A DNA stretch of 62,169 nucleotides, filler included, from Barthelona sp. PAP020 (Eukaryota), in the NCBI GenBank assembly GCA_040182905.1. It is 11 parts of 11 records of this genome, joined end to end, with 100 filler letters (N's around TTAATTAATTAA, not from the genome) between each part and the next. Parts side by side here need not be neighbours in the genome. Positions count along the whole stretch, not along the records: positions 11,425 to 17,187 come from JARQWU010000595.1; positions 17,288 to 22,875 come from JARQWU010000596.1; positions 22,976 to 28,560 come from JARQWU010000597.1; 8 more parts are not named here. One strand, written 5' to 3'. The notes beneath the pieces were generated by a model. The model saw only the letters and a program-made list of their open reading frames with translations, did no database searches and had not been told where the DNA came from. Below are positions 9,464-58,525 of the stretch, piece after piece. Numbering within the stretch: position 1 is the first letter of the stretch; every line of letters starts with the position of its first letter. The translations under genes and the position numbers were made by a program.

Positions 9464-11089
9464 TTATTCGTTGGTCAAATTTAATGTGAAGTTACGAATG
9501 TCAGAACAAGGCCCCCAGAATTGGATTGGACCGGGAGAACGATAATGATCTTCAACTCTCCAAGAATTTCTTAATTCTTCAAACTTCTTAAATGCAGGGC
9601 CATCAAGTTCAACTAAAGCTTTGGTGATAACAGGAACTTCTTTACCATGTCTGACTTCCAAATCCATCATACCTACCAAAGGTAAACCACCAGCTTGCCA
9701 TTCAGATGAAGGTTTGTGTAAATCCCACACACGAGACATTAATCCAGTTAAACCAGAAGCAATCAAGGAACCAGCAGTTTGACCTAAAGCATAACAGTAG
9801 TCACAATCAAAATTGGAAGGCAAACCACAACGACCCTCATAACCAAAGAAATGACTGAGGGGGGAAAACTTGCCATTGTATAAACCAGCTTCTTTTCTTT
9901 TAGCTAATTCAGCTTCAACACAACCAATCAAAAGAGTTTCAGTTTCAATTCTGGAAACTTGAATATTTCCATGAGGATCTCTTTCCAAGCATAATTGTTC
10001 TTTTGTAGCTTGAGGTAAAGACTCAAAAACGTCTCTATTCTCTTTTAATAAGGGAGCAACTTCTTCAGGAGATAATCTGGTGTTTTCAGGGACCACAACA
10101 TTTAATTCCTTGATTAATTCATTGAATTCAGGAATAAAATCGATAAGACCTTCAGGCAACAAAACAATACCGAAGTTTTTACCAACTTGACTTCTTTCAC
10201 AAATTAGATCAGTTAAATCTTTTGTAATATCAGCCAAAGACATTTCTTTCTTGCCAACTTCCTCACCAACGAAGCAATAATTTGGATGTGTTTGTAAGGC
10301 AGCTTCTAAAGTGATATGAGAAGCAGCTCTTCCCATTAAACGAATGAAATGATAATATTTCTTTGCAGAATTGGCATCAACCATCAAATTTCCAACCAAT
10401 TCCGAATAAATTTTGACAGCAGTATCAAAACCAAAGGATGTTTCAATTTCCTTAGATTTTAAATCACCATCAATAGTCTTGGGAACACCAATGACAGTAC
10501 ATTTTAATTGTTCAGCTTTAAATCTTTCAGCCAAATCTGCAGCATTAGTATTAGAATCATCACCACCAATGACAATTAATCCATCAAGATCTAATTCACG
10601 AACATTTTTAACAACAGCCATAAATTGTTCTTCAGTTTTAATTTTAGTTCTACCAGAACCAATAATATCAAAACCTCCTTGATTACGATAGCCAGCAATA
10701 TATTCTGCGGTTAAAATTTGATATTTCTTATCAACAAGACCTCCAGGACCACCCAAAAAGCCAAATAATTCAGAACCATTGTGATATCTTTCTAAAAAGT
10801 CAAAAATACCGGCAATAACATTATGTCCACCAGGTGCTTGACCACCAGACAAAACAATACCAACCTTCAAAGGAGAATTATCAGCAGAAGCGACTTCTTT
10901 CACAATAACAGGTTGAACATCTTGTGTGGTGGGGTAAAAAGATCTGCAATGATCTTTAATACCAAAATCTTTGATTTCAAAAGGTTCAACTACAACAGCA
11001 GGTTTGGAAAAAACATTTGGAACCTGAGGGTTGTACGTTAAACGAGCATTTTGAACTTCGGAAAAATTTTGTTCACGAATAGTGGTCAT
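9464..11089 (-). CDS. PFP: Pyrophosphate-dependent phosphofructokinase (long clade)
   Basis: SGGQAPGGHNVI, GGDDSNT and PKTIDGD (PPi-type signatures), RLMGRAASH, GYEGR. Confidence 0.96.
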   Translation of the reverse strand: MTTIREQNFSEVQNARLTYNPQVPNVFSKPAVVVEPFEIKDFGIKDHCRSFYPTTQDVQPVIVKEVASADNSPLKVGIVLSGGQAPGGHNVIAGIFDFLERYHNGSELFGFLGGPGGLVDKKYQILTAEYIAGYRNQGGFDIIGSGRTKIKTEEQFMAVVKNVRELDLDGLIVIGGDDSNTNAADLAERFKAEQLKCTVIGVPKTIDGDLKSKEIETSFGFDTAVKIYSELVGNLMVDANSAKKYYHFIRLMGRAASHITLEAALQTHPNYCFVGEEVGKKEMSLADITKDLTDLICERSQVGKNFGIVLLPEGLIDFIPEFNELIKELNVVVPENTRLSPEEVAPLLKENRDVFESLPQATKEQLCLERDPHGNIQVSRIETETLLIGCVEAELAKRKEAGLYNGKFSPLSHFFGYEGRCGLPSNFDCDYCYALGQTAGSLIASGLTGLMSRVWDLHKPSSEWQAGGLPLVGMMDLEVRHGKEVPVITKALVELDGPAFKKFEELRNSWRVEDHYRSPGPIQFWGPCSDIRNFTLNLTNE

Positions 11090-11227
11090 TCTAAATCAAT
11101 AAAATTGATTGGAAAAGTGTTAACAATATTTGAAATGTGATTGAGATTTTTTCTGGAGATTTTAGCTCATCCTTACTTTCTTTTGATTTTCAAAGCTTTT
11201 TTTTCTTTTTGTTTAGCTTAAATACAA

Positions 11228-11424: not shown

Positions 11425-11733
11425 CAAGTTGTGAAACAACTATATTTATTTACAAAGAAAAAGTAATCAGAGAAAACTCATTTCATTAAATCTCAGCCAC
11501 AGAAAATGAGTGGCTGCAATTGAATCTTTCTCATCAAGTATTAAATTGTGGAAAAATTTTCCATTCCCATTCTTTTGTATTTTTTGCAAGAGTAAAACTT
11601 TAAAGTTTAAACTTTACCTTGGAAAATCAAAAGTTTTTCAACAGATCAATCGGGCCTCAAAAGCCCTTAACCAAAAAAACACCATTTTTTTTTATTCACT
11701 CATACGCACAGTGTTTCTGGGCTTGGAAATAAC
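11425..11733 (+). repeat. Dispersed repeat family C
   Basis: Aligns with 57150-57601 and 5713-5810; starts at the contig edge. Confidence 0.9.
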
Positions 11734-11935
11734 TAAACAATTTGACCTCTAAATTCATCCATTTACGTTGTTCTTTCTTTTTCATAAAAAAGAAAAGGTA
11801 AAGCATTTTTGAAATTGAAACATTAAAAAGAATATTTTTTCCCTTTTCATTAATTCTCTCATCATAAAAAAGTGCATTATCTATTGAATATAACAACAGC
11901 TTGAAGATTTACCGTTTTTTCTAAAAAAATGAAAT

Positions 11936-12338
11936 GAGGGTTGTTCACAAGCCTATTATTTTTGGCGAATCGAAATTTTCCGATTCTTCCTTTTTCCCTC
12001 GAGGTACGGAACTTTTCCTTAACCTAACCCCAAATTTTTGACCTGCCACGGTGAATACATGAAAACTTGCACAATTAGGATAAATTTTTAAAAATATCGG
12101 AGCTTTAAGCTCTTTTGAGCAATTAGTAATGCAATATTTCACACTCTGCATAGGGCATAGCTCTCCTACGAAAGCCTATGAAAGAGTAGGTCTCAAAAAA
12201 GAGAGGTTCCTTTCAGGAACGCTGGACGTTCTCGAAAAGAAGAAAGATTAAGGTATATTATTTATTAGTCAACTAAGTTTTCCCAGTCTCTAATTTGGGA
12301 AAGTTCTGGAAAAGGTTCGTTCAAAAAGAAAAATAAAA
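11936..12338 (-). mobile_element. Repeat A, ~400 bp non-coding element (putative SINE/MITE-like or structured RNA)
   Basis: Full-length reverse-complement match to 20992-21389; its ~110-bp terminus is shared with 15781-15887 and 28058-28165. Confidence 0.7.
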
Positions 12339-12648
12339 CATCGTAATCTCAATGGAAAGAACACAAACATCAATTCTACATAATAATGCAGAGAAAATGG
12401 CCTTAATTCAACACCATAACCCCTTAATCACCCGTATAGGTTGTATAGCTCATAGTTTAGTGAATACTGAAAGAAATTGCAGTTCAATCATATCTAAAAC
12501 CAAAACTGCACGCAATGAATATTTGTCAACATCGTTCATTGACATGAAGTGAATATTTGCAATTTGAATTTTTGGAGAAATTTTGAAAATTTCTAGTTTA
12601 TCTCCAATTTCAATTTTTCATTTATTTCTTTTTTTTTGTTAGTTTATT

Positions 12649-14807
12649 GTGTCTGTTGAATCAAGTAGTGAAATTGGAGAATTTACACGAGGTTTATTTC
12701 CTCTAAATATTGATGAAAATAGTGGAGGTGAAATTGCAAATGTGATTTCTAATTATTTGTGGGACATTAAATACTTGCCAAATGGTAAACAATTGGTTGT
12801 TGGTACTTATCAAGCTGTCTATGTTATTGATTTAGCAACTGGAATATTGAATCGTACATTGAAAGAGCATACACAGCATGTTTATGGTATTGCCATTTCA
12901 CCAAATGGGCAGAAGTTGGCAACATGTTCCAACGATAGGTTTATCATTGTATACAGCCTTCCAGATTTCTCCATCTTGTGTAGATTGAATGGTAGAACTC
13001 ATATTTATGGAATTTGTTTTTCTTCTTGTTCAAATTATGTATACTCTGGTGATTACAATGGAGATCTTACGAAATATGACACAAATAATGGGAGTATTGT
13101 CTTGGAAAAGAGAATTCAGAATAATTGGAGTTGGAGAGTGAAACTATCAACGAATGGTAAATATCTTTTGACCGGAGGTGGTGATGGTATTGCCAAGTTG
13201 GTTGACCCAGATGATTTATCGGTTGTTCGTACATTCAGTCAAGGTTACCAAATTAGAGCTATTGATTTCCACCCAACTGAAAGAATGATTGCTGTTGGTG
13301 ATCGTTTAAGAAAAGTTAAACTCTGGAACATGGACAACGGATCACTCATTCATACATTTGACATGGGTGGTGAAGTATGGTGTCTTCATTTCTTATCACC
13401 TTATATCCTGCTTATTATGTCTGGTGATGGCTATATTACCTCATTTCATGTTGAAACCTATCAGCGAATTCAAAAGGTACATTGTGGTTGTGACTCTACC
13501 GATTTTTCCTTTGCTATATCCCCAGACAAGACACAAATAGCGTGTGGAAGAAGAAGATCCAACAACACAATAAAATTATTCAAAATCATTCCTGACATCT
13601 CAGATCTAGTTGATGTTGATGTCCTGAAAACCCACAAATCAGACCTAATTGACCTCTCATGGTAGTGTTATATCATATTTACTCACGAATTATCAATTAA
13701 AACACACTGATACTATCATTGTTGAGCTTTTGTCATCAGGAATGTGTCTTTCAGCAGAAGAAGTCAATGAATTTACACAAGGTGACATGGATATTGTTCT
13801 AAATAATGCAGCTAACAGTAGAAATATGCGCCAATTTATCTCACCTGAACTTTTACTCCAATGTTTCATTGAACACAATGAAACACATCTCAAAAAGCAG
13901 ATGAATTTGCTTGCAAGCATTTAAACTTGCTTCCATAAAATCAAAAACCGAAAAGCCTGCTAATTTTAACAAAGATGTTCCTTGCCTGTGCCAAATCCCT
14001 ATTTGATACACAAGAAGGAGACCTTTTGTCCATGAACTTGTTGATTATTCAAAAAATGCTCAAAATGTTGTTTCATCTGTGATTTCAACCTCCAACCAGC
14101 AAGAAGCTTGTGGCACTGTTCTATTATTATTAAAATGTGGGCTTTGGATTTGTTATGATGAGTATGTTTTGATAAAACACATTTTGGATGATGTAATATG
14201 TGAGATAAGCTTCAAGAATGGTGGAAACATCAGGCAAATTCAATTTCCTCACTTTTATTTGTTTTTTACACTTGACGGATTTTCTTTTTCTAATTTGATG
14301 AAATTGACACTAAATAGACACCCTGAAGTACTCAGTAACTTATTTGATTTCATGGTTGAACATAAAAATCTGTTGTCTCAAACTGAAATGTCAGAACTAT
14401 GCGACTTTTCAGAAGCCTATCCGACATTTACTGGGCTTCTGTTTGAAAAAATTGTTCCACACTTGTCTGAAATATCTCGATTAATCTTCCCTGAACTTTT
14501 GCCTAAACATGTAATTTTTGAATTTCCAGCAATTGTAAAACCGTTTTCTCAAAAGATTGAAATGATTTCTGATTTAAAAGAGGAAAATAACCAACAGGAC
14601 GTTTTAATTGGCAACCTCTCAACACAACTTGAACGAGTTACGTCCGTTGTTGCTTTGCTCGTTCAAAACCAATCAAAAAACGTGAACACCCAAAGTCTGT
14701 AAATCGATTAGCTAAATTAGGAGCCATTCGAAGACAACATTGTTGAAGAACTTAAGACCCAACTTAAGGCTACCCTATCCTGGGCTAATCAACAGAATTC
14801 AAGTTAA
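12649..14807 (+). pseudogene. Variable WD40 family copy 1, with two C-terminal helical modules and a coiled coil; disrupted
   Basis: Near-identical to 16202 and 27730 up to nt 13551. Start is GTG where the paralogs have ATG. Frameshift near 13660, and further stops split ORFs 13649-13924 and 14079-14702. Confidence 0.8.
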
Positions 14808-14899
14808 AATCACTTGGGCTCAAACCCAGATCTGTTAATCGTGACAACTTTGATGAATTCATTGACCTTTCTATCAAAATGTATATCTCCAAATATCAA

Positions 14900-15887
14900 T
14901 CGATCACTGAAACAATGAGAAGTGTTTTTTTGGAATTCTCTGTTTTGGCCACAGATTTAGCAGTATGTAGTTTTGAGGATCTGATGGCTTTATGCGTGCT
15001 GTAAATTGTTTTTTTGTCACTAATTTCTTTTTCATCAGCAGAAGGCGATTTCCAAGGTTATAACTTTTCATTTTATAAAGGGTCATAATTCTTTCATTTG
15101 CTAATGCATTATCTCAAGTGCATTTAGATAGGACTTGAACAAGAGTGAACTGTCTTTTGTTGTGTTTGAAAGAATACTTTTATGTCTGTTTTCAACAGAA
15201 GATCAAGGGGTCAATATCTGATGCCAAAGCAGAGGGTGTGCTTGACTTATAGGGAGACACTCTTTGCAGCCACATGTTGAAGAATGTTGAGACTCTCTTT
15301 TTTGGTTTTCTTAAATTTGATACCAGTTATGAGCTCCTGAACCCACTCTTCATCAGTCTAATACCATTTTTTTGACCGTTTCTTTGAACAGCAATACCCA
15401 TCCTATTCTTTCTACTTCAGCAAAGAATCTTATACTTTCATTCCCTACTGCCCCATAATCTTCTTCTTCACCAATTGTGTTTATCAGTTAGACCCAACAA
15501 CCATTGAGCGCGAGATCTTCATCTATTTGTAACGCATCTTCTGGGAATTATTTTTGGAAGTTAGCCACATACAACGCTATTATGAGGATTGATACCGCTT
15601 CATTATAAAGGAGTTTAGCATTAGCATCCTCTTTTTTGATCTCTTTGAATTTGATTCCTGAGAAGAGTTCTTGAACCCACTCTTCATAACTGTAAAAATT
15701 ATTATTGGACAACCCTTGTGGAATGTTTCTTTTCATTGCTGAAACCACTCTGTAACACGTTACCCCTTTAACAAGAACCCCCGAAAAGAATAAAGATTGA
15801 AGTTTATTATTTATTAATCAATTGAGGTTCCCAGTCTCTGATTTGGATAAGCTGTGGAAAAGGTTCGTACAAGAAGAAAAATAAAAA
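14900..15887 (-). mobile_element. Repeat B: terminus shared with repeat A plus a decayed ORF; left boundary uncertain
   Basis: 15384-15887 matches 28058-28560 in reverse complement. The stop-riddled frame contains a duplicated EEWVQEL..GIKFK motif. Confidence 0.55.
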
Positions 15888-16201
15888 GAAATTATCGAAG
15901 TTTATATAAATGTACAATGTTACAAACACCAATTCCACATAATAAACAGAGAAAATAGCCATAATTTAATATCATAACCCCTTACTTACCCGAATAGGTT
16001 GTATAGCTCATAGTTTAGTAAGCATTAAAGAAAGAAGAGTTCAACCAAATCTGAAAACAAAACATCTGCATCCAATGAATATTTGTCAACATCGTTCATT
16101 GACATGAGGTGAATATTTGCAATTTGGATTTTGGAAGATTTTTGAAAATTTCTAGTCAATCGTCAATTTTTATTTTCCATTTATTTTTTTGTTAGTTTAT
16201 T

Positions 16202-17187
16202 ATGTCTGTTGAATCAAGTGGTGAAATAGGAGAATTTATACGTGGTTTATTTCCTCTAAAGATTGATGAAAATAGTGTAGATGAAATTGAAAATGTGATT
16301 TCTAGTTATTCGTGGGACAGTAAATACTTGCCAAATGGTAAACAATTGGTTGTTGGTAGTCATCAAGCTGTTCATGTTATTGATGTAGCAACTGGAATAT
16401 TGAATCGTACATTGAAAGAGCATACAGACAATGTTTATGGTATTGTCATTTCACCAAATGGGCAGAAGTTGGCAACATGTTCCCGTGATAAGTCTATCAT
16501 TGTATACAGCCTTCCAGATTTCTCCATCTTGTGTAGATTGAATGGTGGAGGTTGTATTTGTGGAATTTGTTTTTCTTCTTGTTCAAATTATGTATATTAT
16601 GGTGATACCAATGGAACTCTTACGAAAAGTGACACAAATAATGGGAGAATTGTCTTGGAAAAGAGAATTTCGAATAGATTTATTTGGAGAGTGAAACTAT
16701 CAACGGATGGTAAATATCTTTTGACTGGATGTGGTGATGGTGGAACTGCCAAGTTGGTTGACCCAGATGATTTGTCTGTTGTTCGTACATTCAGTCAAGG
16801 TTGCGGAATTAGAGCTATTGATTTCCACCCAACTGAAAGAATGATTGTTGTTGGTGATGAATCGAAAAAAGTCAAACTCTGGAACATAGACGACGGATCA
16901 CTCATTCATACATTTGATATGGGTGGTCAAGTATGCTGTCTTCATTTCTTATCACCTTATATCCTGCTTATTATGTCTGGTGATGGATATATTACCTCAT
17001 TCAATGTTGAAACTCATCAGCAAATTCAAAAAGTACATTGTGGTTGTAACCCTTTCGGTTTTTCCTTTGCTGTATCCCCTGATAAGACACAAATAGCGTG
17101 TGGAAGATGTGCAGGGAATGTCATCAAAATCTATTCAATTGTCATTGACTATAACCCCTCACATGAGGCGGAACTCATTCGATTGTC
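16202..17187 (+). CDS. Variable WD40 family copy 2, 3' truncated by the contig end
   Basis: ATG start; about 7 WD40 blades (e.g. HTDNVYGIVISPNGQKLATCSRDKSIIVY, AIDFHPTERMIVVGDESKKVKLWN); paralog of 12649 and 27730. Confidence 0.9.
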
Positions 17188-17287
17188 NNNNNNNNNNNNN
17201 NNNNNNNNNNNNNNNNNNNNNNNNNNNNNNNTTAATTAATTAANNNNNNNNNNNNNNNNNNNNNNNNNNNNNNNNNNNNNNNNNNNN

Positions 17288-18123
17288 ATAGGAACATCAA
17301 ATTTAACGAGTGGTAATAGGTTATCCGCAATTTCATGAATTTTAGGAACGATTGCAGGTTCAAAAGCACCTTGAACGGGTAATATATGAGGCTTTTTTGG
17401 TGGAACAGATTGACAAGCTGATCTTGACTCTAAGAAGGTTTCAATATCACCCAATAAATATAGCTCAAGATGGTCTTCAAATATATCAGTTTCTATTTCA
17501 GCAGACTGATTGGAAAGTGCTGAAATGGCGGGTAAACTGCTTGGCAACGATATAATGTCAATCTCTAACCCATCAGAATGCTCAACCAACGATTCTTTAG
17601 GTATCGTGATATAGCAAAAACCATAGGATTTTAATTGATCATACAGGGTTTCCTCAGATTGTGAAGGTAATAACCAAGGAGGAACAAAAGAGTCTTCTAC
17701 AATGGGATTAAAGCATAATCCACTTTCTTTTTTACCAAAATTTTCTGACAATTCAATATCTAACAAAGAATCATCTTCATCATCTGACATAACGGATGAT
17801 AATTCCAAAGCACTGGCAAGCTCATCAAATAAAGCCGTTTTTTGTATACGATTTAAACTAACAAAAGCATCACCAGGCATACAATCAACTGATGAATAAT
17901 CATCAACCACTTTTTCAACTTTTAAATATAATTTTGACTGATGTTTTCGAAATTTGGTTTCAAATTCTGAGTTTAAGTTTTGTTCCATTGAAATTGAATG
18001 GATCAAATGCTTTTCTTTTGAACATTTTTCACAAATATATTCCTTACAATCGTTACAATAATACGTTAAGTTTTCTCCATGCTCCGAACAAAGTTCAACC
18101 GATAAATTGGACTGAAGGTCCAT
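17288..18123 (-). CDS. B-box zinc-finger protein, 3' truncated
   Basis: CSEH...YYCNDCKEYICEKC...KHLIH B-box pattern directly after the ATG at 18123. Confidence 0.8.
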
Positions 18124-18361
18124 AAAAAAAATAACAGTATTTTTATTGGAAAAATTATAAACAAATGAGATAAAAAATAAATCTAACCTCAAATGATAAG
18201 TTGTACAAACATAAATAAAACAAATAAACAACAATAAAAAAAAAAATTAAAATATGAGGTTATTAATTCAACTTTTTTGTTGGGGTCGGATTTTTTTTTA
18301 TTTATTTAACAGAGAAATTTTAGAATGAATTATTAATTCAATCTTTAAAATCAAAAAAAAA

Positions 18362-20962
18362 ATGGGAACAACAACGTCTAAATTACGAGCAATATTTGAC
18401 AACTTAGATTGTGATAAAGATGGATATTTGAGATTATCTCATCTTGAAAAGGGGCATGAACAACTTAGAGAATTAGGAATCAGTTTTAAAAGATGGAATT
18501 CTTTGGGAACTTTTTATACATTTGATAAAGGAAAAGATGGAAAACTATCTTTTGAAGAATTTTGTGATTTAATTGGTTCCTTAAGACGTATAGAATGGAC
18601 TGCGAAGAATAAAAGAAGAAGAAAATTGTTTGGAATTATTCCTTTACCTTTATGCTGTGGTTTAAGAGAATTGAACACTGAACATGGTGAAAAAAAAGAA
18701 AACGGACAATGTCTAAGCCTTCCAAATGGAGAAATTTTTTCTGTTCTTGAAGAATTCCCAATCGATCAAGCGGTAACAGTTACATTACAAGGAACTAATC
18801 GTGGTGATGGTACTTTTACGCATGTTAACAATAATTTATTTGAATCTTTTCGTAGTTTCAGTTCTGAACAAGTCCATGAATTTTGGGATCGAATCCAATT
18901 AAATATGAAGGAAGAAGGTCGTGAATGTTGGTTAAAATGGTTATTTACCGTTATTGTTGAAGATAGTGAAAGAATAGATGTTTCCAAGCTTACCTTGTTA
19001 ATCAAGGCTTTGCATGCTGATGGTGTTGAAGCAGAAACTTTGTTGTCTGACAGTGATAATGAGATGGAAAATGGAAAGCTTCATAGCCCTACCTCAATAA
19101 CTGAACGAGTATTAGCTCAGTATGATCTGGATGAAACAGGAGATCTTAATTACTCTGAATTTGTGGAATTAGCCATGGATATCATGCGTGAAATTTATTT
19201 GTATCAAGAAAGGGCATTTCAGCATCGAAATTTTCGAAACTATACTTTGTACAAGACTTTAGGCACTGGTAGTATGGGTATAGTTAAGCAAGCGAGGAAT
19301 GATACAACTGGAGAATATGTCGCATTGAAAATGTGTCGCATTACGTCAGATGCTGTGCATGATAAATTGATGAGTGAGATTGAAACGTTAGAAAAGCTTA
19401 GAAATTGTAAGCATTGTGTCAAGTTGTACGAGTATTTTATGGAAGGAGATATGATGGTTATCGTTGAGGAATTATGCGATGGAGGTGATTTGCATGAACT
19501 GTTGTTTCAATTACCCGAAAACACTAATTTTATCAAATATTACTTTAAACAGCTTTGTTTGGGGGTCAAAGAACTCCACGACAAAAATATTTGTCATCGT
19601 GATATTCGTCTTGAGAACATTTTGCTGGATGCTGAAGGAACAATCAAGTTAACAGACTTTGGCTCAGCTAGGGAATTCAAAAAAGGTTGGGATATGTTCA
19701 ACACGTATATGGTTGGTGGTTTATACCATCTAAGTCCCGAACAATTAGAACAAAAGATATATTCAGGAACAAAAACAGACATATGGTCTTTGGGCATTGT
19801 GCTTTATTGCCTTGTTTTTCGTAAACGACCATTCTTTAATGCACATATTCCAACCATGCTTGAACATATGAAAAGTGCTGATTGGTATGTTGAAGATAAG
19901 GTAGTTGATCCTGAAGCATTATCGCTACTTGGAAAATTGCTTGTGAAGGATCCAGATGAAAGGTTAACGATAAATGAGATCTTGGAAGACCCTTTCATCA
20001 AAGAATTTGATCTCTCCAAGTTTAATCCTGTTTTAGCTATTGCATCATTGTGGTTAGGTGCATTACCTTTGGCTTTAGATATGGGTGATATGAATTTAAA
20101 ATTCTCAGATGTGTTTTTGAAGAGGCAAAATAGTGTCTATAGTCAAACATCCACTATCAACTCCATTGTCAATTCTGAACAAAATCATTTATTTGAACAT
20201 TCTTTATCTATCATTGACGAAAACAATTCTAACTACAACATTTCCAGAAGCGCTTCGCCCTTTAAGAGCGAAGAGTGTATCAGTGATACTTCAAAATTAG
20301 ACATTCGAAGTTCTTCCATTCCTCCTGTTGACAGACCAGACAATGATTCTCAGGAACTTTTAAATGAAGAATTCCTTCAGAATACCCCATTAAGTATCAA
20401 TCAGTCCGTTCATGATTTGAATATTAAAGATACTGTTTGTTATATCAAAGAAAGAGATGTCGAAGTTGATATCTGTTTAGATCCGAATGAAGTGATTGAA
20501 ACTCATAAATATTTAATTCAAGCTATAATGAGGATTATGAACAAATATAGTTTTATTCTGGAGTGTGATGAAGCATATTCATGTGATGAGCCAGCTGTTA
20601 CTCTTAATCCTATTCAATGTGCAGGACAAACATTTGAAATTCCCGCTGTAGATTCGTCTTTTTTATTCAAATGTGATAGCATGCGTGTTTTAATTGAGTT
20701 AAAGTATGACGCGGTAAAGATGAGTGAAATGATGGAAACTCTTGATTTATTATCTACAAAAGCTGAAAAATTGAGTCAATCACCTGTTACCACATTTTGT
20801 CCTCGATCAAAACCACATCATTTTTATTTGTTTTCTATTTTTCAATATTATGTGGGATGGAGAATGAACTTTCAATTGATTGGTGGAAATTTGAGAGAGT
20901 TTCATCATCAATATGTTCGTATTGTTCGAAAATTACAGAAACTTTTGCCAACGGATTATTAA
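18362..20962 (+). CDS. N-myristoylated EF-hand + CAMK-group Ser/Thr kinase with KA1-like C-terminus
   Basis: MGTTTS; EF loops DCDKDGYL, DKGKDGKLSFEE, DLDETGDLNYSE; kinase motifs GTGSMG, VALK, HRDIRLEN, DFG, DIWSLG. Confidence 0.9.
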   Translation: MGTTTSKLRAIFDNLDCDKDGYLRLSHLEKGHEQLRELGISFKRWNSLGTFYTFDKGKDGKLSFEEFCDLIGSLRRIEWTAKNKRRRKLFGIIPLPLCCGLRELNTEHGEKKENGQCLSLPNGEIFSVLEEFPIDQAVTVTLQGTNRGDGTFTHVNNNLFESFRSFSSEQVHEFWDRIQLNMKEEGRECWLKWLFTVIVEDSERIDVSKLTLLIKALHADGVEAETLLSDSDNEMENGKLHSPTSITERVLAQYDLDETGDLNYSEFVELAMDIMREIYLYQERAFQHRNFRNYTLYKTLGTGSMGIVKQARNDTTGEYVALKMCRITSDAVHDKLMSEIETLEKLRNCKHCVKLYEYFMEGDMMVIVEELCDGGDLHELLFQLPENTNFIKYYFKQLCLGVKELHDKNICHRDIRLENILLDAEGTIKLTDFGSAREFKKGWDMFNTYMVGGLYHLSPEQLEQKIYSGTKTDIWSLGIVLYCLVFRKRPFFNAHIPTMLEHMKSADWYVEDKVVDPEALSLLGKLLVKDPDERLTINEILEDPFIKEFDLSKFNPVLAIASLWLGALPLALDMGDMNLKFSDVFLKRQNSVYSQTSTINSIVNSEQNHLFEHSLSIIDENNSNYNISRSASPFKSEECISDTSKLDIRSSSIPPVDRPDNDSQELLNEEFLQNTPLSINQSVHDLNIKDTVCYIKERDVEVDICLDPNEVIETHKYLIQAIMRIMNKYSFILECDEAYSCDEPAVTLNPIQCAGQTFEIPAVDSSFLFKCDSMRVLIELKYDAVKMSEMMETLDLLSTKAEKLSQSPVTTFCPRSKPHHFYLFSIFQYYVGWRMNFQLIGGNLREFHHQYVRIVRKLQKLLPTDY

Positions 20963-20991
20963 AATTTGTAAATATTTTCGGAAAATTTTGA

Positions 20992-21389
20992 TTTGTTTTT
21001 CTTCTTGTACGAACCTTTTCCAGAACTTACCCAAATCAGAGACTGGAATCTCAGTTTATTGATAAACAATAAACCTTAATCTTTATTCTTTTCGGAGGAT
21101 CCAGCGTTCCTGAAAGGAGCCTCTCTTTTTTGAGACCTACTCTTTCATAGGCTTTCGTAGGAGAGCTACGCTCTATGCGGGGTATGAAATATTGCATTAC
21201 TAATTGCTCAAAAGAGCTTAACGTTCCGATATTTTAAAAAGAATTATCCTAATTGTGTAATTTTTCATGCATTCACCGTGGCAGATCAAAAATTTGGGGG
21301 TAAGTTAAGGAAAAGTTCCGTACCTCGAGGTAAAAAGAAAAATCGGAAAATTTCTATCAGCCAAAAAGAATAGCTTCTAAACAACACTC
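20992..21389 (+). mobile_element. Repeat A, second full copy, followed by a T-run
   Basis: Reverse-complement match to 11936-12338; flanks differ between copies; T13 at 21390-21402. Confidence 0.7.
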
Positions 21390-21540
21390 TTTTTTTTTTT
21401 TTCTTCTTTTTGACAATCTGAAGGTAAAAATGATAAATGATCGGGTTTTCCTTATACCATAAAGCAAAATTGGTGAAAATATTGTTAGCACAAGAAGAAT
21501 TGTAAATATGCGCAAATGAAGGGAAGACTGTTGATGTCAT

Positions 21541-21652
21541 GGTAAACGGCGGGGTAACTATGATTCTTTTAAGGTAGCCAAATGCCTCGTCACCTAATTA
21601 GTGGCGCGCATGAATGGATTAACGAGGTTCCTACTGTCCCTATCTACTATCT
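21541..21652 (+). rRNA. Isolated 112-bp LSU (28S) rDNA fragment, non-functional
   Basis: GGTAAACGGCGGG-GTAACTATGA...TTAAGGTAGCCAAATGCCTCGTCA...GCGCATGAATGGATTAACGAG...ACTGTCCCTATCTACTATCT is the conserved helix 69-71 region; both flanks are non-rRNA. Confidence 0.92.
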
Positions 21653-22975
21653 CAATTATTTGTGGCAAAAGAATTTTATTGAAAGAATATATTTCTGTAC
21701 TAATCTGTAAACAAGAAATTTTGTTTTGAGAAAGAATAAAAATTGCTACTTTTTGCTGCATCACATATGATTGTAGCAAAGATCTTACATTTACTTATTT
21801 TTAACCGAATTTTCATTAAATTTTGTTAATTTGCTTTGAAATAATTTTTTAACAAAACTGAGAAAAGACGAGAAAAGAGGTTAATATTAATTTTGATCAC
21901 CTTTTTCACTTCTTTCTTTGAGCTATGAAAGTGGTGTGTTTTAAATCGATGGAATCCTAAAACGTCAATAATAAATTGGTTTTGTGTTAATTTATTCAAG
22001 TTAGAGACTGGACAACATACCTAATCTCAGAAACTGTCAATGTGAAGAAAATTGAAGATGCAATTCCACAAAGTATCAATCCTATTTGAGACTGTGTTTC
22101 CAACTACTCAATATTGTAATATAAAATGAAAGGAAAAAGGAAACACAATGAACAAAAAGAAGATGTGATATGATAGGTGGACTTTTTGACAAACACAAAA
22201 AAGAAGGTTTTGGCTTAAGTTTTGAATCACTTGATTACAAATACAACCAAAGAAATATTTACACTGAAAAATGTGCAAACATGCACTGAAACAAAGAGTT
22301 TCACCAAAAATATTTAATAATCGAACAAACATCTCTACAAAACACAATTATCATTTTCTACTATCACATTCATGGTGTTTAAATCAATGCTAAATGCAAA
22401 GTTGTCCATATAAACTCGAAAGAAAAAATCCTAACAAAGAATTGACCCACTCATAGAAAAAAATATCTCACAGATGCCTAATCATTCATTTCATCTCATT
22501 TCAACAATTGGTGCTCCAAAACATCGACGGATTGTTTTTGGAAAAATATTCAAAAAGAATGAAAAGATCAAATTCATTTTTAGCTTTTTTAAATTCCTTT
22601 TTTTTTGCAGACGATGGTTGTTAACACTGATGTTCCATTCTTTAAAAAGACAATTGAACGGAAGGAAAAAGAAAAGGATATAATTTTTGTTGCAAACTGG
22701 CGATCAAAAGGCAAAAATCGTATACCCAATCTAGAATCATACACAAAGATCATTAATTCACTGAAACCCACCGAAATTCGTGGATCCAGCTTCAAAATAA
22801 TTGATCCCCATTTTGCAACAGGCGCATTTGGATTCTTATGCACAGCTGAAAGATATGGGATTGTTGTCATAATCANNNNNNNNNNNNNNNNNNNNNNNNN
22901 NNNNNNNNNNNNNNNNNNNTTAATTAATTAANNNNNNNNNNNNNNNNNNNNNNNNNNNNNNNNNNNNNNNNNNNN

Positions 22976-23354
22976 TCCAGTGGTGATTTTTATTATTTGT
23001 TGACGTTTTTCTAATGCTTGAGTTCCAGTAACAAAAACGCTATTTTCAAGCTTTGTTGCAGCTTCAATAATCTTTTCAACCTTTGCATCGGATATTCCTT
23101 TAACGTTAGCTAAGTCTTTTCTGGTATGCATAATTATCGATCGAACAGTATGAAATCCTGCAGAAGTCAACTTCTTTACATCTGTTGCAGAAATACCTAA
23201 TGTAGTTAAAGCTTCAATTGGTTGAACATCATCTTCTTCAAGCTGTTCTTCATATTGAGTTTCATCTTCTGATTCTTCAGCATATTCCACTTCACTACAT
23301 TGATTAGTTACATTACAAATGAAAACAAAACTGTCTTTTAACACTTTTTGACAT
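22976..23354 (-). CDS. DMC1: Meiotic recombinase DMC1 (RAD51 family), 5' fragment; probable intron 23295-23331
   Basis: GISATDVKKL..AG..T...IMHTRKDLANVKGISDAKVEKIIEAA...FVTG...KITTG. MHT and FVTG favour DMC1 over RAD51. A 37-nt GT...CTAATCAATGTAG intron links the frame to ATG 23354. Confidence 0.8.
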
Positions 23355-23539
23355 GTTGCAAATAAAAAGAAAAGAAATAAAAAATGCAGGGATAATTTTC
23401 TTTCTTTCTTTTTTTTAAAAGCATTTGCAAATCAAAGTAACAAAATTGAATTGACACAAAAAGCTTTAAATATGCATGTTAAATAAAGATATTAAACAAA
23501 AATGTCGAAAATTTACAAAAAATAATAAAATATTTAAAA

Positions 23540-25540
23540 TTAACTGTTATTGTTGATAGAATTTTCTTCAAATTCTTCACGAATAGGCGCAGGAGCAAAA
23601 GGAGCAATCGAAATATCTTCAGTAACAGGAATGTTTGCATAATCTTCGACTTCTTCAATACTATATTCTTTGGTATTTTTATCAACCAGTAACTTGTATT
23701 TATGATACTTAACAGCTGTAGATCTGTGAGCAACGCTAATCAAAGTTATGCCTTTTCTGCAAGACATAGTATATAATTTGGTTTCAAGTGGTTCATCCAA
23801 AGAAGCCGTGGACTCATCAAGAATAGCATAACTAGGGTGATGGAAAAACATTCTGGCAAAACCAAGACGTTGCTGCTCACCAAGAGATAACATATCTTCC
23901 CAAACTTGAACAGAATCCAAGCCACCACCTCTGGAAGGAAGATCACCAAGATCAACTGCCTCCAACGCCTCCAATAATTGAGAATCGTGATGTTTTATTT
24001 CGTAGGACGTATACGGATAACATAACTGATCTCTAAGAGTACCAATAACAATGTAAGGACGTTGAGGAATAAAGAAAACTCCTTTTCTACCACAACTTCC
24101 TGGCCTATAGACTTTACCACCACATTCATCCCATAAACCAGCAACTGCACGTAAAATCGATGATTTTCCACAACCAGAAGGACCTTGAATAACTGTGGAA
24201 TTACCTCTTGATAAGTCGATTTTTAGATTATTGATCAAACGTCTACCTTGTGGTGTACTTACAGTAATCCCATCAACAACCATCTTGGGTGAATCAATGT
24301 ATATGGTAGCCTTGCTATCCTCATCCGACTCAGAAGGATCCTCAAAAACACCTTGTTTCATTCCTGATAACCCCATTTCACCACGATCCAACGTTTCAAG
24401 ATATTCCATAAGTTCAGCGACACGAGTAGTTGAACCCATTACAACAGAGATATCCTGACCAAATGAAAGAATGGCGGAAAGTGCTGTCAGCAATTGGGTA
24501 ATCAATTGAATCATGGAATTAACGTCAGCCATGTCCATTTCATTTTTCATGACAAAAACGTTTACAATCGGGATAATAAATGCTATAATATTAGAAAATT
24601 GACCAATAAATAAGTTAGCAAAGTTCAAAGGAACATTCAATCTTGCTAATTCGCTGAAATTATCAACAACTTCTTTTAATCGATCTTCAACAATCATGTG
24701 TTCTCTCGATTCACCCTTATAGAAAGCAACCGACTCCGCATACGTTCTAACTCGAACATGAGCAAAACGAAAATCTCCTTCAACCTGATTCTGACGATAA
24801 TTCACCTTGACAACTGGAGACATCAATTGACTATTCAAGAAAACACCAATCAAAAACCAAACAACAGCAATAGCCAAAGAAACAAAAGAACTTTCTTGAA
24901 CAATCTTGTAGGATACCATAGCAATGGTAATGATGTTAAAGAAAATGCCATCTCGGTTCACATTACCAAAAATGCAATCGCAAAAATTCTGTGTCGCTGT
25001 TGTGACATCAGTTGTCAAACGTTGATCAGGATTATCCAAGGTATAGCTACCGTTCTGTAAGATATAATATGATTTGTTGGCAAAATAAAAAGAATGAAGC
25101 TTTGTAACTAATTTCCTTCTCCAAGTGATATAGAATTTTTGAGATAAATAATTAATAATTGTTTGCAAAGTAGTATAACATAAACAATAAATAAGACCAA
25201 GAACAACTCCTTTTAACACAATTGGTTGATCAACAGTGGTAAAACCAACAACAAAAATAATAGTTAATTCATTCGCATTGGAATAAAGCAACGAAACTAA
25301 AACCAATAAGAAAAAAATTGCAATAATATCAAAAGTTCCTTTAGAAAGTAAACGAGGAACTCTTTCCCTAAATAACTTTCCTAAAGCCTTAGTACCACCA
25401 ATATTAATTTGTGTTTCTTCCTCTTCTTCTTCTTCTTCAGCTTCAAAATGTGGTAGTAAATCTACCAAAAAATCAGCCTTTTCAACTAAAGAAGGTTCTG
25501 AATTATGAGGTAATAACAAAGGCTCATCTTCAACTGGCAT
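23540..25540 (-). CDS. ABC transporter subfamily D half-transporter
   Basis: DNPDQR, EGDFRFAHVRVRTYAESVAFY (EAA motif), GPSGCGKSS, FIPQRPY, LSLGEQQRLGFAR, LDESTAS. Confidence 0.93.
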   Translation of the reverse strand: MPVEDEPLLLPHNSEPSLVEKADFLVDLLPHFEAEEEEEEEETQINIGGTKALGKLFRERVPRLLSKGTFDIIAIFFLLVLVSLLYSNANELTIIFVVGFTTVDQPIVLKGVVLGLIYCLCYTTLQTIINYLSQKFYITWRRKLVTKLHSFYFANKSYYILQNGSYTLDNPDQRLTTDVTTATQNFCDCIFGNVNRDGIFFNIITIAMVSYKIVQESSFVSLAIAVVWFLIGVFLNSQLMSPVVKVNYRQNQVEGDFRFAHVRVRTYAESVAFYKGESREHMIVEDRLKEVVDNFSELARLNVPLNFANLFIGQFSNIIAFIIPIVNVFVMKNEMDMADVNSMIQLITQLLTALSAILSFGQDISVVMGSTTRVAELMEYLETLDRGEMGLSGMKQGVFEDPSESDEDSKATIYIDSPKMVVDGITVSTPQGRRLINNLKIDLSRGNSTVIQGPSGCGKSSILRAVAGLWDECGGKVYRPGSCGRKGVFFIPQRPYIVIGTLRDQLCYPYTSYEIKHHDSQLLEALEAVDLGDLPSRGGGLDSVQVWEDMLSLGEQQRLGFARMFFHHPSYAILDESTASLDEPLETKLYTMSCRKGITLISVAHRSTAVKYHKYKLLVDKNTKEYSIEEVEDYANIPVTEDISIAPFAPAPIREEFEENSINNNS

Positions 25541-26560
25541 TATTATAATGTCAAAAATGAAAAAAAAAAGTCTTTGAAGATTTTTTGAAATTTTAATGTT
25601 GCCTTTTATTTAACATTTGATATAACATATGTTTGGAAATCAATCAAATTATGTTTTACATCTTATTTCTTTGAAAATTTATTTTCCATCTTTCATTTTC
25701 CAAACACTTTGCAATTCATTTTGATAAAATCAAAGAATCTAAACAATTTTGAAACAACTAAAAAATCAAAAATAAATATATAACAGTGTTATTATTGTGA
25801 AAAGAAAAATACTTGTTTGTTAATTTAAAAAAGGGATGTTGAATCAAGCAAATTTAACTTTTGCATCTTTTATTTGTATCACTGAAGTGAATTACATTGA
25901 AAAAAGAATGTAAAAAAATAGAAAATATTGAAGATTTTACAAATAACCCTGTTCCCTTTCCGACAAAATGAACAACTCAAACAAAAATGTATTAGTTGAT
26001 GCTATTCAAGGCACATCCTTACCAATAAAAAAGAAAACAACACACACCAAAGAAAAGGACAGCTAAGGATTTATTGAGAAATTAGCTTTCATATTGGAAT
26101 ATTCACAAAAATAGACAAAGAAAGGTTAACATGAACAATGAACTAAATTCAAAAATAAATTATAAACAACTGGATTGAAGAACTGGATTTCAACTTCAAA
26201 TTTGGAAAATCTCAAATAACCTTGTGAAGAAAGGCAAAAAAAGATAGCACAATAATATGCACAGCAAATAAAGCCAATAGATCCAGAAAGTGGCATACAG
26301 CCAACCAAAGAAAAAAATCTGTTTCTCATGTCCAATCATCAATCAAAATTAGACAGACCTTGTGATGGAAACGAAAACTGTTGGATTTGAACTCGAATTA
26401 AAGAACAATAAAAAAAAAACCAAGGAACATCTGCCAAATGAAAATGAAAATGAACCAAATAATTGTTCAAAACAGAAAATTCTCAGTGCATCCCCAAAAT
26501 GATGTTTTGGATCATTTTTCCAACTAATCAATCATCAACTTCATCACTTTCATAATCACT

Positions 26561-27730
26561 TTATTCATTGAAAAATGAGTGCATATTTCCACCCTTCATT
26601 TCATTAATGTCAGATAAATCCCAACATGTGTCAACAATCATGCTATACTCCACTTCATTCATGTATATCCCTGCGGCTACCAATTGTCTTATGAGTTGAG
26701 TATCAATATTCAAAGCCATAAGATTCGACAACACATAGCCACCATCCCTTGACAATCGAATGAGTTCTGCCTCATGTGAAGGGTCATAGTCAATGACAAT
26801 TGAATAGATTTTGATGACATTCCCTGCACATTTTCCACACGCTATTTGTGTCTTATCAGGGGATATAGCAAAGGAAAAATGGGAAGAGTCACAACCACAA
26901 TGCACCTTTTGAATTTGCTGATAAGTTTCAACATTAAATGAAGTAATATAACCATCACCAGACATAATAAGCAGGATATAGGGTGATAAGAAATGAAGAC
27001 AGTATACTTGACCACCCATATCAAATGTATGAATGAGTGATCCGTCGTCCATGTTCCAGAGTTTGACTTTGTTTGAACGATCACCAATAGCAATCATTCT
27101 TTCAGTTGGGTGGAAATCAATAGCTCTAATTTCGCCACCTTGACTGAATGTACGAACAACAAACAAATTATCTGGGTCAACCAACTTGACAATATCACCA
27201 CCTCCAGTCAAAAGATATTTACCATCCGTTGAAAGTTTCACACTCCAAACCCCATTATTCTGAATACTTTTTTCTAAGACAATTCTCCCATTATTTATGT
27301 CATCTTTCGTAAGAGTTCCATTGTAATCACTATAATATACATAATTTGAACAAGAAGAAAAACAAATTCCATAAATAAAAGTTCCACCATTCAATCTACA
27401 CAAGATAGAGAAATCTGGAAGGCTGTATACAATGATAGACATATCACCAGAACATGTTGCCAACTTCTGCCCATTTGGTGAAATGGCAATACCAAAAACA
27501 GAGCTTGTATGGTCTTTCAATGTACGATTCAATATTCCAGTTGCTACATCAATAACATAAACAGCTGCACGACTACTAACAACCAATTGTTTACCATTTG
27601 GCAAGTACTTACTGTCAAAGAAATAATCAGAAATCACATTTGCAATTTCAACTTCACTATTTTCATCAATCTTTGGAGGAAATAAACCACGTATAAACTC
27701 TCCTATTTCACCACTTAATTCAACAGACAT
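26561..27730 (-). CDS. Variable WD40 family copy 3, complete: propeller plus ~65-aa C-terminal module
   Basis: ATG 27730 (MSVELSGEIGEF) aligns with the paralog starts; the ORF is uninterrupted. Confidence 0.9.
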   Translation of the reverse strand: MSVELSGEIGEFIRGLFPPKIDENSEVEIANVISDYFFDSKYLPNGKQLVVSSRAAVYVIDVATGILNRTLKDHTSSVFGIAISPNGQKLATCSGDMSIIVYSLPDFSILCRLNGGTFIYGICFSSCSNYVYYSDYNGTLTKDDINNGRIVLEKSIQNNGVWSVKLSTDGKYLLTGGGDIVKLVDPDNLFVVRTFSQGGEIRAIDFHPTERMIAIGDRSNKVKLWNMDDGSLIHTFDMGGQVYCLHFLSPYILLIMSGDGYITSFNVETYQQIQKVHCGCDSSHFSFAISPDKTQIACGKCAGNVIKIYSIVIDYDPSHEAELIRLSRDGGYVLSNLMALNIDTQLIRQLVAAGIYMNEVEYSMIVDTCWDLSDINEMKGGNMHSFFNE

Positions 27731-28057: not shown

Positions 28058-28560
28058 TTTTATTTTTCTTCTTCTACGAACCTTTTCCACAGCTTATCCA
28101 AATCAGAGACTGGGAACCTCAATTGATTAATAAATAATAAACTTCAATCTTTATTCTTTTTCGGGGGTTCTTGTTAAAGGAGTAACGTGTTACAGAGTGG
28201 TTTCAGCAATGAAAAGAAACATTCCACAAGGGTTGTTTAACAATAATTTTTGCCGTTATGAAGAGTGGGTTCAAGAACTCTTCTCAGGAATCAAATTCAA
28301 AGAGATCAAAAAAGAGGATGCTAATGCTAAACTCCTTTATAATGAAGCTGTATCAATTTTCATAATAGCGTTGTATGTGGCTAACTTCCAAAGATAACCC
28401 CAGAAGATGCGTTACACACAGATGAAGATCTCACACTCAATGGTTGTTGTGTCTGACTGATAAACACAATTGGTAAAGAAGAAGATTATGGTACAGTAGG
28501 GTATGAAAGTATATTATTCTTTGCTGAAGTAGAAAGAATAGGACAGGTATTGCTGTTCAA
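28058..28560 (+). mobile_element. Repeat B, second copy, cut by the contig end
   Basis: Reverse-complement match to 15384-15887, including the decayed MKRNIPQG... frame. Confidence 0.6.
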
Positions 28561-28660: not shown

Positions 28661-30391
28661 GCTGATGTTTGGTCATTTGGTGTAATGTTGGCTCAGGTCA
28701 TTTCTGGGTTTGTTCCATTTGATGGGTTGACTGAGTTTCAAATTGCTGTTAAATTGAGTAGGGGACAACTTCCGTATAGCAAGGAATTGTTGGACACAAT
28801 ACCTGGGTTTGGAATTATTAAGAGGTGTTTGGCTGTTGAGGCAGATGCTAGGCCAACGTTTAGCGAGATCACTGAGTATTTACAGATGCTGATTGAGCGT
28901 TTCGAGGGGTTAGGATTCGACGAGAAGAGGTTGGTGAAGGAGAATGCTGTGTTGAAAGAGGAAAATAAGATTTATGAGGAAAGGGTTCAGAGTTTAACAA
29001 GGAAGGTTGATGAGTTAAATGAGGAAAGAAATGAATGCATGAATGAAAAAAAAAAATTAATCCATGAAAATGGTCAGTTGAAAGAAGAAACAGAGAAATT
29101 GACAAGTCACAACCAAGAATTAATTAATCAAATGGCCAATTTTATGGAAGAAAAAAAAAACTGGATGAATAAAAACCAAGAATTAGTCAATAAAGTGAAC
29201 AAGCATATGGAAGAAAAAAGAACCTGGATGAATGAAAAGCAAGAATTAACAAATCAAGTCCATCATTTGACAAACCAATTGAATGAACTTATGAATAACA
29301 ATGATAGAAAACAATCAGTTGAAAATAGAAAGCAAGTTGTTTCAACCTGTTTAACCAACCAATTGAATGAGCTTTTGGATAACAATAATCAAGATCAACA
29401 CAGTAAAAATAGAAATCAAGTTATTCGTACAGTCGAAAGGTTTGAAGAAAGTCCTGCTTTTAATGAGGAATTTCCTAATAAATTTGTTCATGCCCTTGAT
29501 TACAGCCCTGATGGACGGTTTTTTGCGGTTGCTGGATACGGCAACAAATTACTCAGAGTCTTCAACGCTGAAACACATGAAATTATGCATGAAGGCCAGT
29601 ATGTAAACACTATTGGTCTCAATTTCAGTCCCAACTCCAAATTATTGGCTGTTGGTGGTAGTTTTGGTGATAGTACAGCAATTCATATCATTGAGGTTGA
29701 TACATGGAGAACATTAAGAGTAATTAGGCCTAAAGCAAGGAATGTAATGGGCGTGTGGTTTTCACATGATGGCATTCCAGCGAATGTATTGAATTTGTGG
29801 TTCTCACCAGATGGAAAACTGCTTTATTTTGGTATGGAGTTTGGTTACATCGCCATATACACTGTCGAAGGACAGAAGTTGCATGAATCTCGAGCTCATG
29901 AAAAAATTGTTCAATCTGTACGTATCAGCCCCGACATGAAGTACTTTGCATCTGTCAGCAATGATAAATGTTCAAAGTTATTTTCATTAGAGACGTATGA
30001 AGAGCTTCACACGTGGAGTCATGACAGAAAGAGTGTCGGCTCAGGCAACTTCTCACCTGATAGTGCTATTTGGGCAACAGGTGATGACAGTGGTACAGTC
30101 AGGATATTTAATGTTGAATCCAGAGAGTTGATGGGAAAGTGGAAGGTTCATAACAACAGCATATACTCAATTATCTTCTCCCAAGATGGTTCACTGATCT
30201 ATTCTGGTTCTACTGATAAATCTTTTGCTGTGATTCGAAGAGAAACTGGTCAAGTGTTGCAGAAAGTGGATGTATCTTTTGGGATTTATATTATGGCCCT
30301 CAGCCATGATGGAACTCGTTTGTTATGCAGTGGAAAAAAAAGCAACAGAGAAAATGTCCCAATCCAAGAATTCATTGCTTCAGACCTGTAA
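28661..30391 (+). CDS. Protein kinase (C-lobe only visible) + coiled coil + WD40 propeller; 5' truncated
   Basis: Frame open from the contig start: ADVWSFGVML...PF...IIKRCL....ARPTF (subdomains IX-XI), then heptad repeats, then YSPDG/FSPDG/ISPD/FSQDG blades. Confidence 0.9.
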   Translation, partial: ADVWSFGVMLAQVISGFVPFDGLTEFQIAVKLSRGQLPYSKELLDTIPGFGIIKRCLAVEADARPTFSEITEYLQMLIERFEGLGFDEKRLVKENAVLKEENKIYEERVQSLTRKVDELNEERNECMNEKKKLIHENGQLKEETEKLTSHNQELINQMANFMEEKKNWMNKNQELVNKVNKHMEEKRTWMNEKQELTNQVHHLTNQLNELMNNNDRKQSVENRKQVVSTCLTNQLNELLDNNNQDQHSKNRNQVIRTVERFEESPAFNEEFPNKFVHALDYSPDGRFFAVAGYGNKLLRVFNAETHEIMHEGQYVNTIGLNFSPNSKLLAVGGSFGDSTAIHIIEVDTWRTLRVIRPKARNVMGVWFSHDGIPANVLNLWFSPDGKLLYFGMEFGYIAIYTVEGQKLHESRAHEKIVQSVRISPDMKYFASVSNDKCSKLFSLETYEELHTWSHDRKSVGSGNFSPDSAIWATGDDSGTVRIFNVESRELMGKWKVHNNSIYSIIFSQDGSLIYSGSTDKSFAVIRRETGQVLQKVDVSFGIYIMALSHDGTRLLCSGKKSNRENVPIQEFIASDL

Positions 30392-58432: not shown

Positions 58433-58525
58433 TGTTATAATGTTATCAATTATGAAACTTACATCAAAAAAAAAAAATATTCTTCAAAATTGAAAGACGC
58501 ATTTTTTATTTACAAATACATACAA

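Follow-up and report, generated by a model that had tools for sequence, protein, structure and literature searches.

Diversifying selection on the top face of a WD40 propeller family with a conserved C-terminal module in Barthelona sp. PAP020

Barthelona sp. PAP020 is an anaerobic, free-living flagellate, whose present name is Parabarthelona vacuolata (PMC13087550). In a stretch of 62,169 nucleotides (nt) from its genome assembly (GCA_040182905.1), referred to below as the window, three copies of a WD40 propeller gene (A, B and C) are found, which belong to a large family whose members mostly end in a conserved helical module. The window consists of contigs of about 5.6 kb strung together via N spacers and has a G+C content of about 30%. 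The standard genetic code fits its long open frames, part of its open reading frames (ORFs) was covered by a Pfam family scan, and exact entries of EukProt origin exist in the protein collection for five of ten other proteins of the window. An initial annotation, made from the DNA alone, had placed three paralogs at 12649 (+), 16202 (+) and 27730 (-) and had read them as a multicopy family of recognition receptors. The three paralogs were borne out (Table 1). A and B form a tandem pair on a single contig and C lies on a different contig, an arrangement that had been overlooked. The description of the copies as nearly identical in DNA holds in part: they are close copies, but their propellers are only 90-91% identical in nucleotides (81-89 differences per about 900 nt) and differ at 8-12% of synonymous sites, with 79-84% identity at the protein level. 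Against 44 relatives, A, B and C form one clade with a support of 99 in a quick tree, which is mostly unresolved (two of 44 inner branches starred) and was used for this clade only.

The broken state of A, the contig cut of B and the premature stop of C had also been overlooked. Copy A has a stop codon just upstream of its GTG, and its earliest in-frame ATG is codon 213. Its frame shifts near 13660, and beyond approximately 13551 it carries another, broken 3' end with two diverged modules in other frames. The 231-codon frame found there is likely the broken 3' part of a longer gene to which the A propeller is joined. Over equal columns, the 5' flank of A is about 17% diverged from B and C, compared with 7.6% between B and C, and the coding region of A is 9-10% diverged. 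The flank of A has thus diverged beyond its synonymous sites, significantly so against B (69/408 vs about 18/194, p = 0.013), whereas the comparison with C falls short of significance (p = 0.12). This pattern suggests conversion. Judged from these alignments, copy A is likely a chimeric pseudogene whose propeller was gained through conversion or recombination.

The whole span of copy C (27730-26561, -) encodes 389 residues and is fully covered by propeller and module. Its TAA falls 11 codons ahead of the stop expected from P0118, a EukProt entry of 145 residues that equals the 3' part of C in all but one position (144/145); it has Gln in place of the TAA, and its tail is intact. If P0118 belongs to the same transcript set as the relatives named below, as we presume, then transcripts are made from an allele or a near sister copy of C that has kept its acidic tail. 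A reading of TAA as Gln was ruled out, as three of the five window genes that exactly match collection proteins end at TAA. With one copy broken, one cut by the assembly and one prematurely stopped, the window by itself lends little weight to three working receptors; the frame of B is open as far as it runs. A degraded frame with an internal repeat (15356-15796, -, and about 28130-28560, +) lies head-to-head with B and C and was co-duplicated with them. Upstream of B, this frame has no Pfam match.

Table 1. Positions of the propeller copies, their modules and their flanks along the window.
Feature	Position	Strand	Basis or remark
Copy A propeller, same young sub-clade	12649..13665	+	GTG replaces ATG; homology to B and C stops near 13551; stop codon 13663-13665; likely pseudogene
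Copy B	16202..17187	+	Frame open from ATG across the propeller into the module start; truncated by contig end
Copy C, N-terminal short helix and seven-bladed WD40 propeller (residues 1-313)	26792..27730	-	AlphaFold2, Foldseek, Pfam WD40
Copy C, C-terminal helical module (residues 314-389), conserved, no known family	26564..26791	-	Module profile match; five helices; 51 aligned copies
Copy C, premature TAA (26561-26563), then 10-codon acidic tail and TGA	26528..26563	-	Comparison with P0118
Module copy 1 (diverged) behind A, out of propeller frame	13661..13840	+	Profile independent E-value 6e-5; 24% identity to C module
231-codon open frame containing module copy 2 (14031-14237, diverged)	14007..14702	+	Profile independent E-value 7e-6; no Pfam match
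5' flank of A, common to B and C	12233..12648	+	About 17% divergence from each
5' flank of B, common to C	15384..16201	+	51 differences in 817 nt
5' flank of C, common to B, reaching contig end	27731..28560	-	Flank alignment

In the AlphaFold2 model of copy C (mean predicted local distance difference test score (pLDDT) 92.5, predicted template modelling score 0.87, alignment of 30 sequences), an N-terminal helix is followed by seven four-stranded blades and a five-helix C-terminal module. The nearest solved fold is WDR5 (Foldseek, E = 1e-23), and the Pfam WD40 profile PF00400 scores over the cut-off in all three copies, in agreement with a seven-bladed beta-propeller. The blades of C are dissimilar to each other, with a mean identity of 0.12 and a maximum of 0.27, and the whole protein matched nothing but generic WD40 clusters in ESM Atlas. 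It has been shown that the positions R1, R1-2 and D-1 of WD40 propellers are interaction hot spots (PMC3419727). The top face was defined here by the d-a and b-c loops of the model strands, plus the R1-2, R1 and D-1 positions assigned by repeat register. No hydrophobic segment was found, the Kyte-Doolittle mean being at most 1.63 in every 19-residue window of any copy, and the N-termini are non-hydrophobic (no dedicated signal-peptide predictor was used); this absence suggests a cytosolic location of the family. NACHT and HET domains were not found in the family either, and the Walker A motif is present in 0 of 51 module-bearing proteins, so the earlier statement that NACHT domains and membrane segments are lacking stands. 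The best 120 of 353 longer matches were 20-31% identical and none came from EukProt, which is weak evidence for the same absence of NACHT.

The initial annotation had also held that the copies differ by clustered multi-base codon changes at loop positions, and the variable motifs that it quoted match the alignment letter for letter (8/8). When mapped on the AlphaFold2 model, the variable sites do lie mostly on the top face. The codon comparison of A, B and C covered 298 codons, 64 of the top face and 234 others, 62 of which belong to bottom loops. At the top-face codons, the proportion of nonsynonymous differences (pN) is 0.256 vs 0.084 for synonymous differences (pS), and 33 of these codons vary in amino acid. 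At the 234 other codons, pN is 0.047 vs a pS of 0.102, and the 62 bottom-loop codons, eight of which vary, have a pN of 0.038 vs a pS of 0.106. Codons with at least two base differences make up 23/64 of the top face vs 3/234 elsewhere (Fisher p = 2e-14) and 1/62 in the bottom-face loops (p = 3e-7), as the claim of clustered changes requires. Also, 14 of the 20 testable R1-2, R1 and D-1 positions are variable, compared with 54 of 278 others (p = 4e-6). The pairwise dN/dS of the whole propeller (0.99, 0.72 and 1.18) is an average of two regimes.

Partition-free site models were fitted to the three sequences using our own codon-model code (GY94, F3x4, star tree). M2a was preferred over M1a (likelihood ratio test (LRT) 34.1, p = 4e-8), with about 11% of sites at an omega of about 11, and 15 of the 16 sites with a posterior above 0.8 under M2a are top-face sites. 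When instantaneous double and triple mutations were allowed, the LRT was 18.3 (p = 1e-4) and omega about 8. Such a control is needed, since clusters of substitutions are found in the non-coding flank too. In fixed-site fits, omega was 2.1-4.1 on the top face and 0.37-0.44 elsewhere, and with a shared synonymous rate the fits were significant in four of four cases (p = 1e-5 to 3e-3), with A included or not. Site models and fixed-site fits both place dN/dS above 1 at top-face sites, as had been predicted, and the changes are clustered there well above chance. Diversifying selection on the top face of this large, lineage-specific WD40 family is real and statistically supported.

A search of the protein collection with copy C resulted in 107 matches. 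Of these, the first 27 belong to the family (36-59% identity by BLAST, E <=6e-57) and are without exception EukProt ORFs carrying Trinity names; the remaining 80 are generic propellers (E >=8e-20). Fifteen of these 27 relatives were checked by name, and each is a transcript ORF of Barthelona sp. PAP020, a metamonad. A module-only search of 1.84 billion representatives gave 40 matches, seven of which were already in the first set. The other 33 comprise 18 proteins with propeller and module, six other architectures, one module-only fragment and eight unrelated repeat proteins, and the 25 new module-bearing records presumably come from the same lineage as the PAP020 relatives. In total, 44 distinct relatives were obtained, 26 from the search with C (with full-length cluster members in place of two fragments, and without one entry that is frameshifted) and 18 from the module search; the large family suspected at first therefore has at least 44 further distinct members. 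Pairwise identity among them is 18-59%. When the 295 propeller positions are ranked by variability in the 26 older relatives, the first 10 all belong to the top face. Entropy is higher on the top face than in the bottom loops, both in these 26 (p = 4e-6) and in the 18 others (p = 9e-5). Among the 295 positions, the top face supplies 10 of the first 15 in the pooled set and nine of the first 15 in the new 18. The loop variants of the window are mostly new, with 6/30 recurring in the 44 relatives vs 4.6 expected. The family also decays, as three of the first 27 relatives stop before or within the module.

The C-terminal module, likewise missed in the initial annotation, has about 75 residues in five helices (pLDDT 87.8) with an acidic tail, and ends most members. 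A Trp-Asp-Leu motif is present in 48 and a Gly-Gly-Asn motif in 49 of the 51 aligned copies, and the motifs lie 10-33 residues from the C-terminus in 51/51. The entropy of the module core is below that of both loop classes. The acidic tail is found in 40 of the 54 proteins examined, a set with three proteins that lack the module. Six carriers outside the WD40 family end in the module as well: the ankyrin proteins P0244 and P0267; P0250, an importin-alpha-like ARM protein whose module is 49% identical to that of P0001; P0265, which is propeller-like with a helical N-terminus; and P0260 and P0271, which are long and have weak or no Pfam matches.

No Pfam family was found (E up to 10) for the modules of C and P0249 and the first module of A, and the second module of A has a single weak, unrelated match (E = 0.07). 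Foldseek gave nothing at E <=0.001 in the PDB or viral structures. The best VIA-align hits are generic helical repeats (Z 4.3, root-mean-square deviation 3.4, 56 aligned), with none at Z >=5 among 48,161 chains, and the best feature score in ESM Atlas is 0.75. In a PDB profile search, the matches are dominated by the ankyrin part of P0244. A weak likeness of module residues 33-59 to pentatricopeptide repeats in seven of the 40 module-search matches was rejected, as it rests on summed non-significant stretches, and likenesses seen by eye to ankyrin, CARD, SHOCT and F-box patterns are unsupported by the Pfam and fold searches. A homodimer prediction for the module, run without alignment, scored 0.00, a value that gives no verdict. 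A loose Leu-x-x-Leu-Ser-Lys/Arg-type pattern, defined post hoc from the alignment, occurs in 39 of the 51 modules. In addition, among the pairs P0002/P0108, P0014/P0109, P0024/P0110 and P0012/P0019, tails switch within or just after the module in transcript-assembly variants, and two otherwise diverged members carry an identical module. Module DNA may therefore be near-identical between paralogs, through conversion or as an assembly artefact.

On balance, the family probably consists of variable binders, in which the top face binds different, probably foreign proteins and the module would hand them to a shared partner. A variable face, a conserved scaffold and a constant module that is reused on other repeats together form the layout of a substrate adaptor, which suggests an own target for each member and one shared partner. 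Binding at the top face is predicted from the fold and the published hot-spot positions, and a single module partner is suggested by the conservation of the module and its fixed C-terminal place. An origin of the targets in bacteria, viruses or selfish elements is a guess. A ubiquitin-ligase scaffold is a tentative candidate for the module partner, and a signalling partner is about equally likely. In the proposed mechanism, each intact member would bind a distinct protein via its top face, and the module would deliver this protein to one common cellular partner. The targets would shift fast, as in conflict, so that new specificities would arise by duplication and subsequent selected point changes while old ones decay, in a process of birth and death. 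The recognition family proposed at first is upheld in its face, its selection and its size; the proteins are not bare propellers, and the module suggests an adaptor rather than an HNWD-like sensor. A more specific version is conceivable, although doubtful: a barthelonid-specific system of cell-autonomous recognition, in which dozens of hypervariable WD40 proteins and ankyrin, ARM and other proteins share an undescribed C-terminal 'box' and one effector against bacterial or viral proteins.

Several observations weigh against the adaptor reading or the selection on which it builds. The testable DNA sequences number three, and one is a pseudogene; a full-length relative at least 60% identical to C was not found in the collection search (best 59%). 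Allowing the top face a separate rate weakens the support (p = 0.014, 0.036, 0.045 and 0.075 with 64 codons), although with the 20 hot-spot codons p is 0.014-0.027 in four of four fits. Substitutions in the non-coding flank of B and C cluster as well, with 17 of 51 having a neighbouring mismatch vs 6.1 expected, which indicates that multi-base events arise without selection at the protein level. Two of the 16 high-omega sites, 143 and 157, are the Trp and His of the tetrad, which are conserved in 21/26 and 20/26 relatives and lost in the A/B/C sub-clade, and their high omega may reflect relaxation. Old paralogs of any WD40 family with differing partners would be expected to diverge on the top face. 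The carriers of the module outside the WD40 family could include assembly chimeras. Canonical ligase-docking patterns are nearly absent from the modules (BC-box 1/51, Cul5-box 0/51, F-box (LPxE[IL]) 0/51).

Part of these observations could be accommodated without selection, if exposed loops drift under relaxed constraint while the duplicates decay, and if a high dN/dS is simulated by clusters of mutations or by short conversion patches that stem from diverged paralogs. The broken A, the prematurely stopped C, the clustered flank substitutions, the divergent A flank with its hint of conversion and the one non-significant separate-rate fit (p = 0.075) would agree with this. However, the bottom-face loops are exposed too and stay conserved (pN 0.038), top-face pS is not elevated (0.084 vs 0.102), the signal persists under multi-hit models and without A, and the recurrence of loop variants (6/30 vs 4.6 expected) shows no import of patches from known paralogs, which makes this explanation very unlikely. 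In programmed diversification, the variable codons would be written by a mutator, either template-driven or specific for adenine, of the kind known from diversity-generating retroelements, or by conversion with silent copies (A, for instance) serving as cassettes. This would suit multi-base codon changes on a near-constant scaffold and a silent-looking copy that adjoins an open one on the same contig. It is extremely improbable, as the variation spans about 900 nt, 230 adenines are invariant in all three copies, 26 of the 61 variable top-face bases have no A in any copy, and a template repeat was not found in the self-comparison of the window, although a reverse transcriptase could lie elsewhere in the genome, as the family scan covered part of the window's ORFs.

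Two further possibilities accept the diversified binding face and differ in what it serves. The binders could have endogenous ends and follow fast-evolving proteins of the cell itself, such as gene families, selfish elements or cell-cell self/non-self tags. All sequence results (selection, entropy and module) fit this equally, one module carrier is importin-alpha-like, and at least 27 members are present as transcript-assembly ORFs with no known challenge. An omega of 2-11 on the binding face of young copies is, however, more typical of conflict systems (PMC1805685, PMC4334554), and an endogenous role is judged unlikely. The other possibility varies the second half of the preferred explanation: the module would be a homotypic or signalling domain, death-fold-like in its role, that couples the propellers to effectors such as P0267, and the outcome would be a response and not degradation. 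The tandem modules behind A, the presence of the module on several architectures and the N-terminus of P0267, kinase-like by eye, speak for such signalling, but Pfam found no kinase domain in P0267 and the module is single and strictly C-terminal in the 51 stored carriers; this role is considered quite improbable.

If the family does act as a set of adaptors, the barthelonid repertoire would be a lineage-specific counterpart of the F-box and SOCS-box adaptor repertoires. The discrimination between foreign and own proteins inside the cells of free-living protists is little understood. The family gives a concrete entry point, with measured diversifying selection on the propeller face that is also selected in fungal NOD-like receptors, no NTPase and an unclassified, putative docking module that occurs across repeat types.

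Other features were observed in the window. A kinase C-lobe, a coiled coil and a WD40 propeller are encoded in one frame at 28661-30391 (+), which is cut at the contig start; this kinase-sensor layout lacks the module and stands outside the propeller-module family. Two places, 11923-12340 (+) and 20989-21402 (-), share a dispersed repeat about 420 bp long at 88% identity; inverted arms lie inside it at 21007-21032 and 21298-21323. The final 120 bp or so of this repeat also occur upstream of copies B and C, and it may be a non-autonomous element of small size. Another dispersed, non-coding repeat (11427-11732, 57280-57600 and 5713-6049) is at or near the contig start in two of three places. A fragment of eukaryotic large-subunit rRNA of about 120 nt is present in a non-rDNA context at 21528-21652 (+) (Rfam RF02543, E = 2e-11 to 2e-16). 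A tRNA-Thr(TGT) was detected at 56926-57012 (-) by ARAGORN and Rfam and a second tRNA at 45345-45409 (+) by Rfam alone. Judged by eye, a tandem pair of hydrophobic proteins that are related to each other and have no family assignment is encoded at 57611-58483 (-) and 58526-59269 (-). By eye, the gene at 9464-11095 (-) is presumably a pyrophosphate-dependent phosphofructokinase, and 22976-23353 (-) is taken to be the start of a DMC1/RAD51-like recombinase.

A description of such a Barthelona WD40 family or module, or of WD40 immunity in protists, was not found in the open full-text literature, the coverage of which excludes subscription papers. The terms WD40, expansion and ubiquitin are unmentioned in the main text, supplements aside, of the barthelonid genome paper (PMC11316075; term search). 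The pattern of top-face diversification is already known; neither the module nor the lineage seems to have been described in the literature searched.

In the HNWD/NWD family of Podospora anserina, which includes HET-D and HET-E, diversifying selection at the d-a loop and the b-c turn has been reported, along with multiple genes, pseudogenes and sequence exchange (PMC1805685, PMC12222747). The Barthelona family diversifies at the same propeller positions. HNWD receptors, which trigger cell death upon allorecognition, have a central NACHT NTPase domain that was not found in the Barthelona family. In contrast to HNWD repeats, which are near-identical under concerted evolution, the Barthelona proteins have one seven-bladed propeller with unlike blades, diversification takes place between genes instead of repeats, and a C-terminal module is added. 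By its sequence, the family is thus not likely an HNWD receptor, and the module points to an adaptor architecture instead. A class of highly repetitive WD40 proteins, known from bacteria, fungi and protists, has a constant scaffold with variable hot spots and is delimited by an internal identity above 0.7 (PMC5587647). The conserved scaffold and variable hot-spot positions are shared by the Barthelona family, whereas the identity between its blades does not exceed 0.27. The adenine-restricted variation against a template repeat that marks targets of diversity-generating retroelements was not found in the Barthelona copies of the window.

For the F-box and MATH-BTB adaptors of nematodes, birth-and-death evolution and positive selection in the substrate-binding but not the cullin-binding domain have been described, and foreign targets have been proposed (PMC4334554). 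The Barthelona family is similar in its variable, predicted binding domain, its conserved, putative docking domain and its proposed birth-and-death evolution, but its module is C-terminal and has neither the F-box pattern nor a Pfam match. SOCS-box adaptors (WSB, ASB) and poxvirus ankyrin-PRANC proteins carry a short C-terminal helical box on WD40, ankyrin and other repeats. In Barthelona, a C-terminal box is likewise found on WD40, ankyrin and ARM proteins, although it lacks the canonical BC-box, with a single exception, and the Cul5-box. By analogy, the Barthelona family would resemble HNWD sensors and nematode adaptors each in part and appears to belong to neither. The selection on its propeller face also hints that distant eukaryotes have repeatedly arrived at top-face diversification of WD40 propellers.

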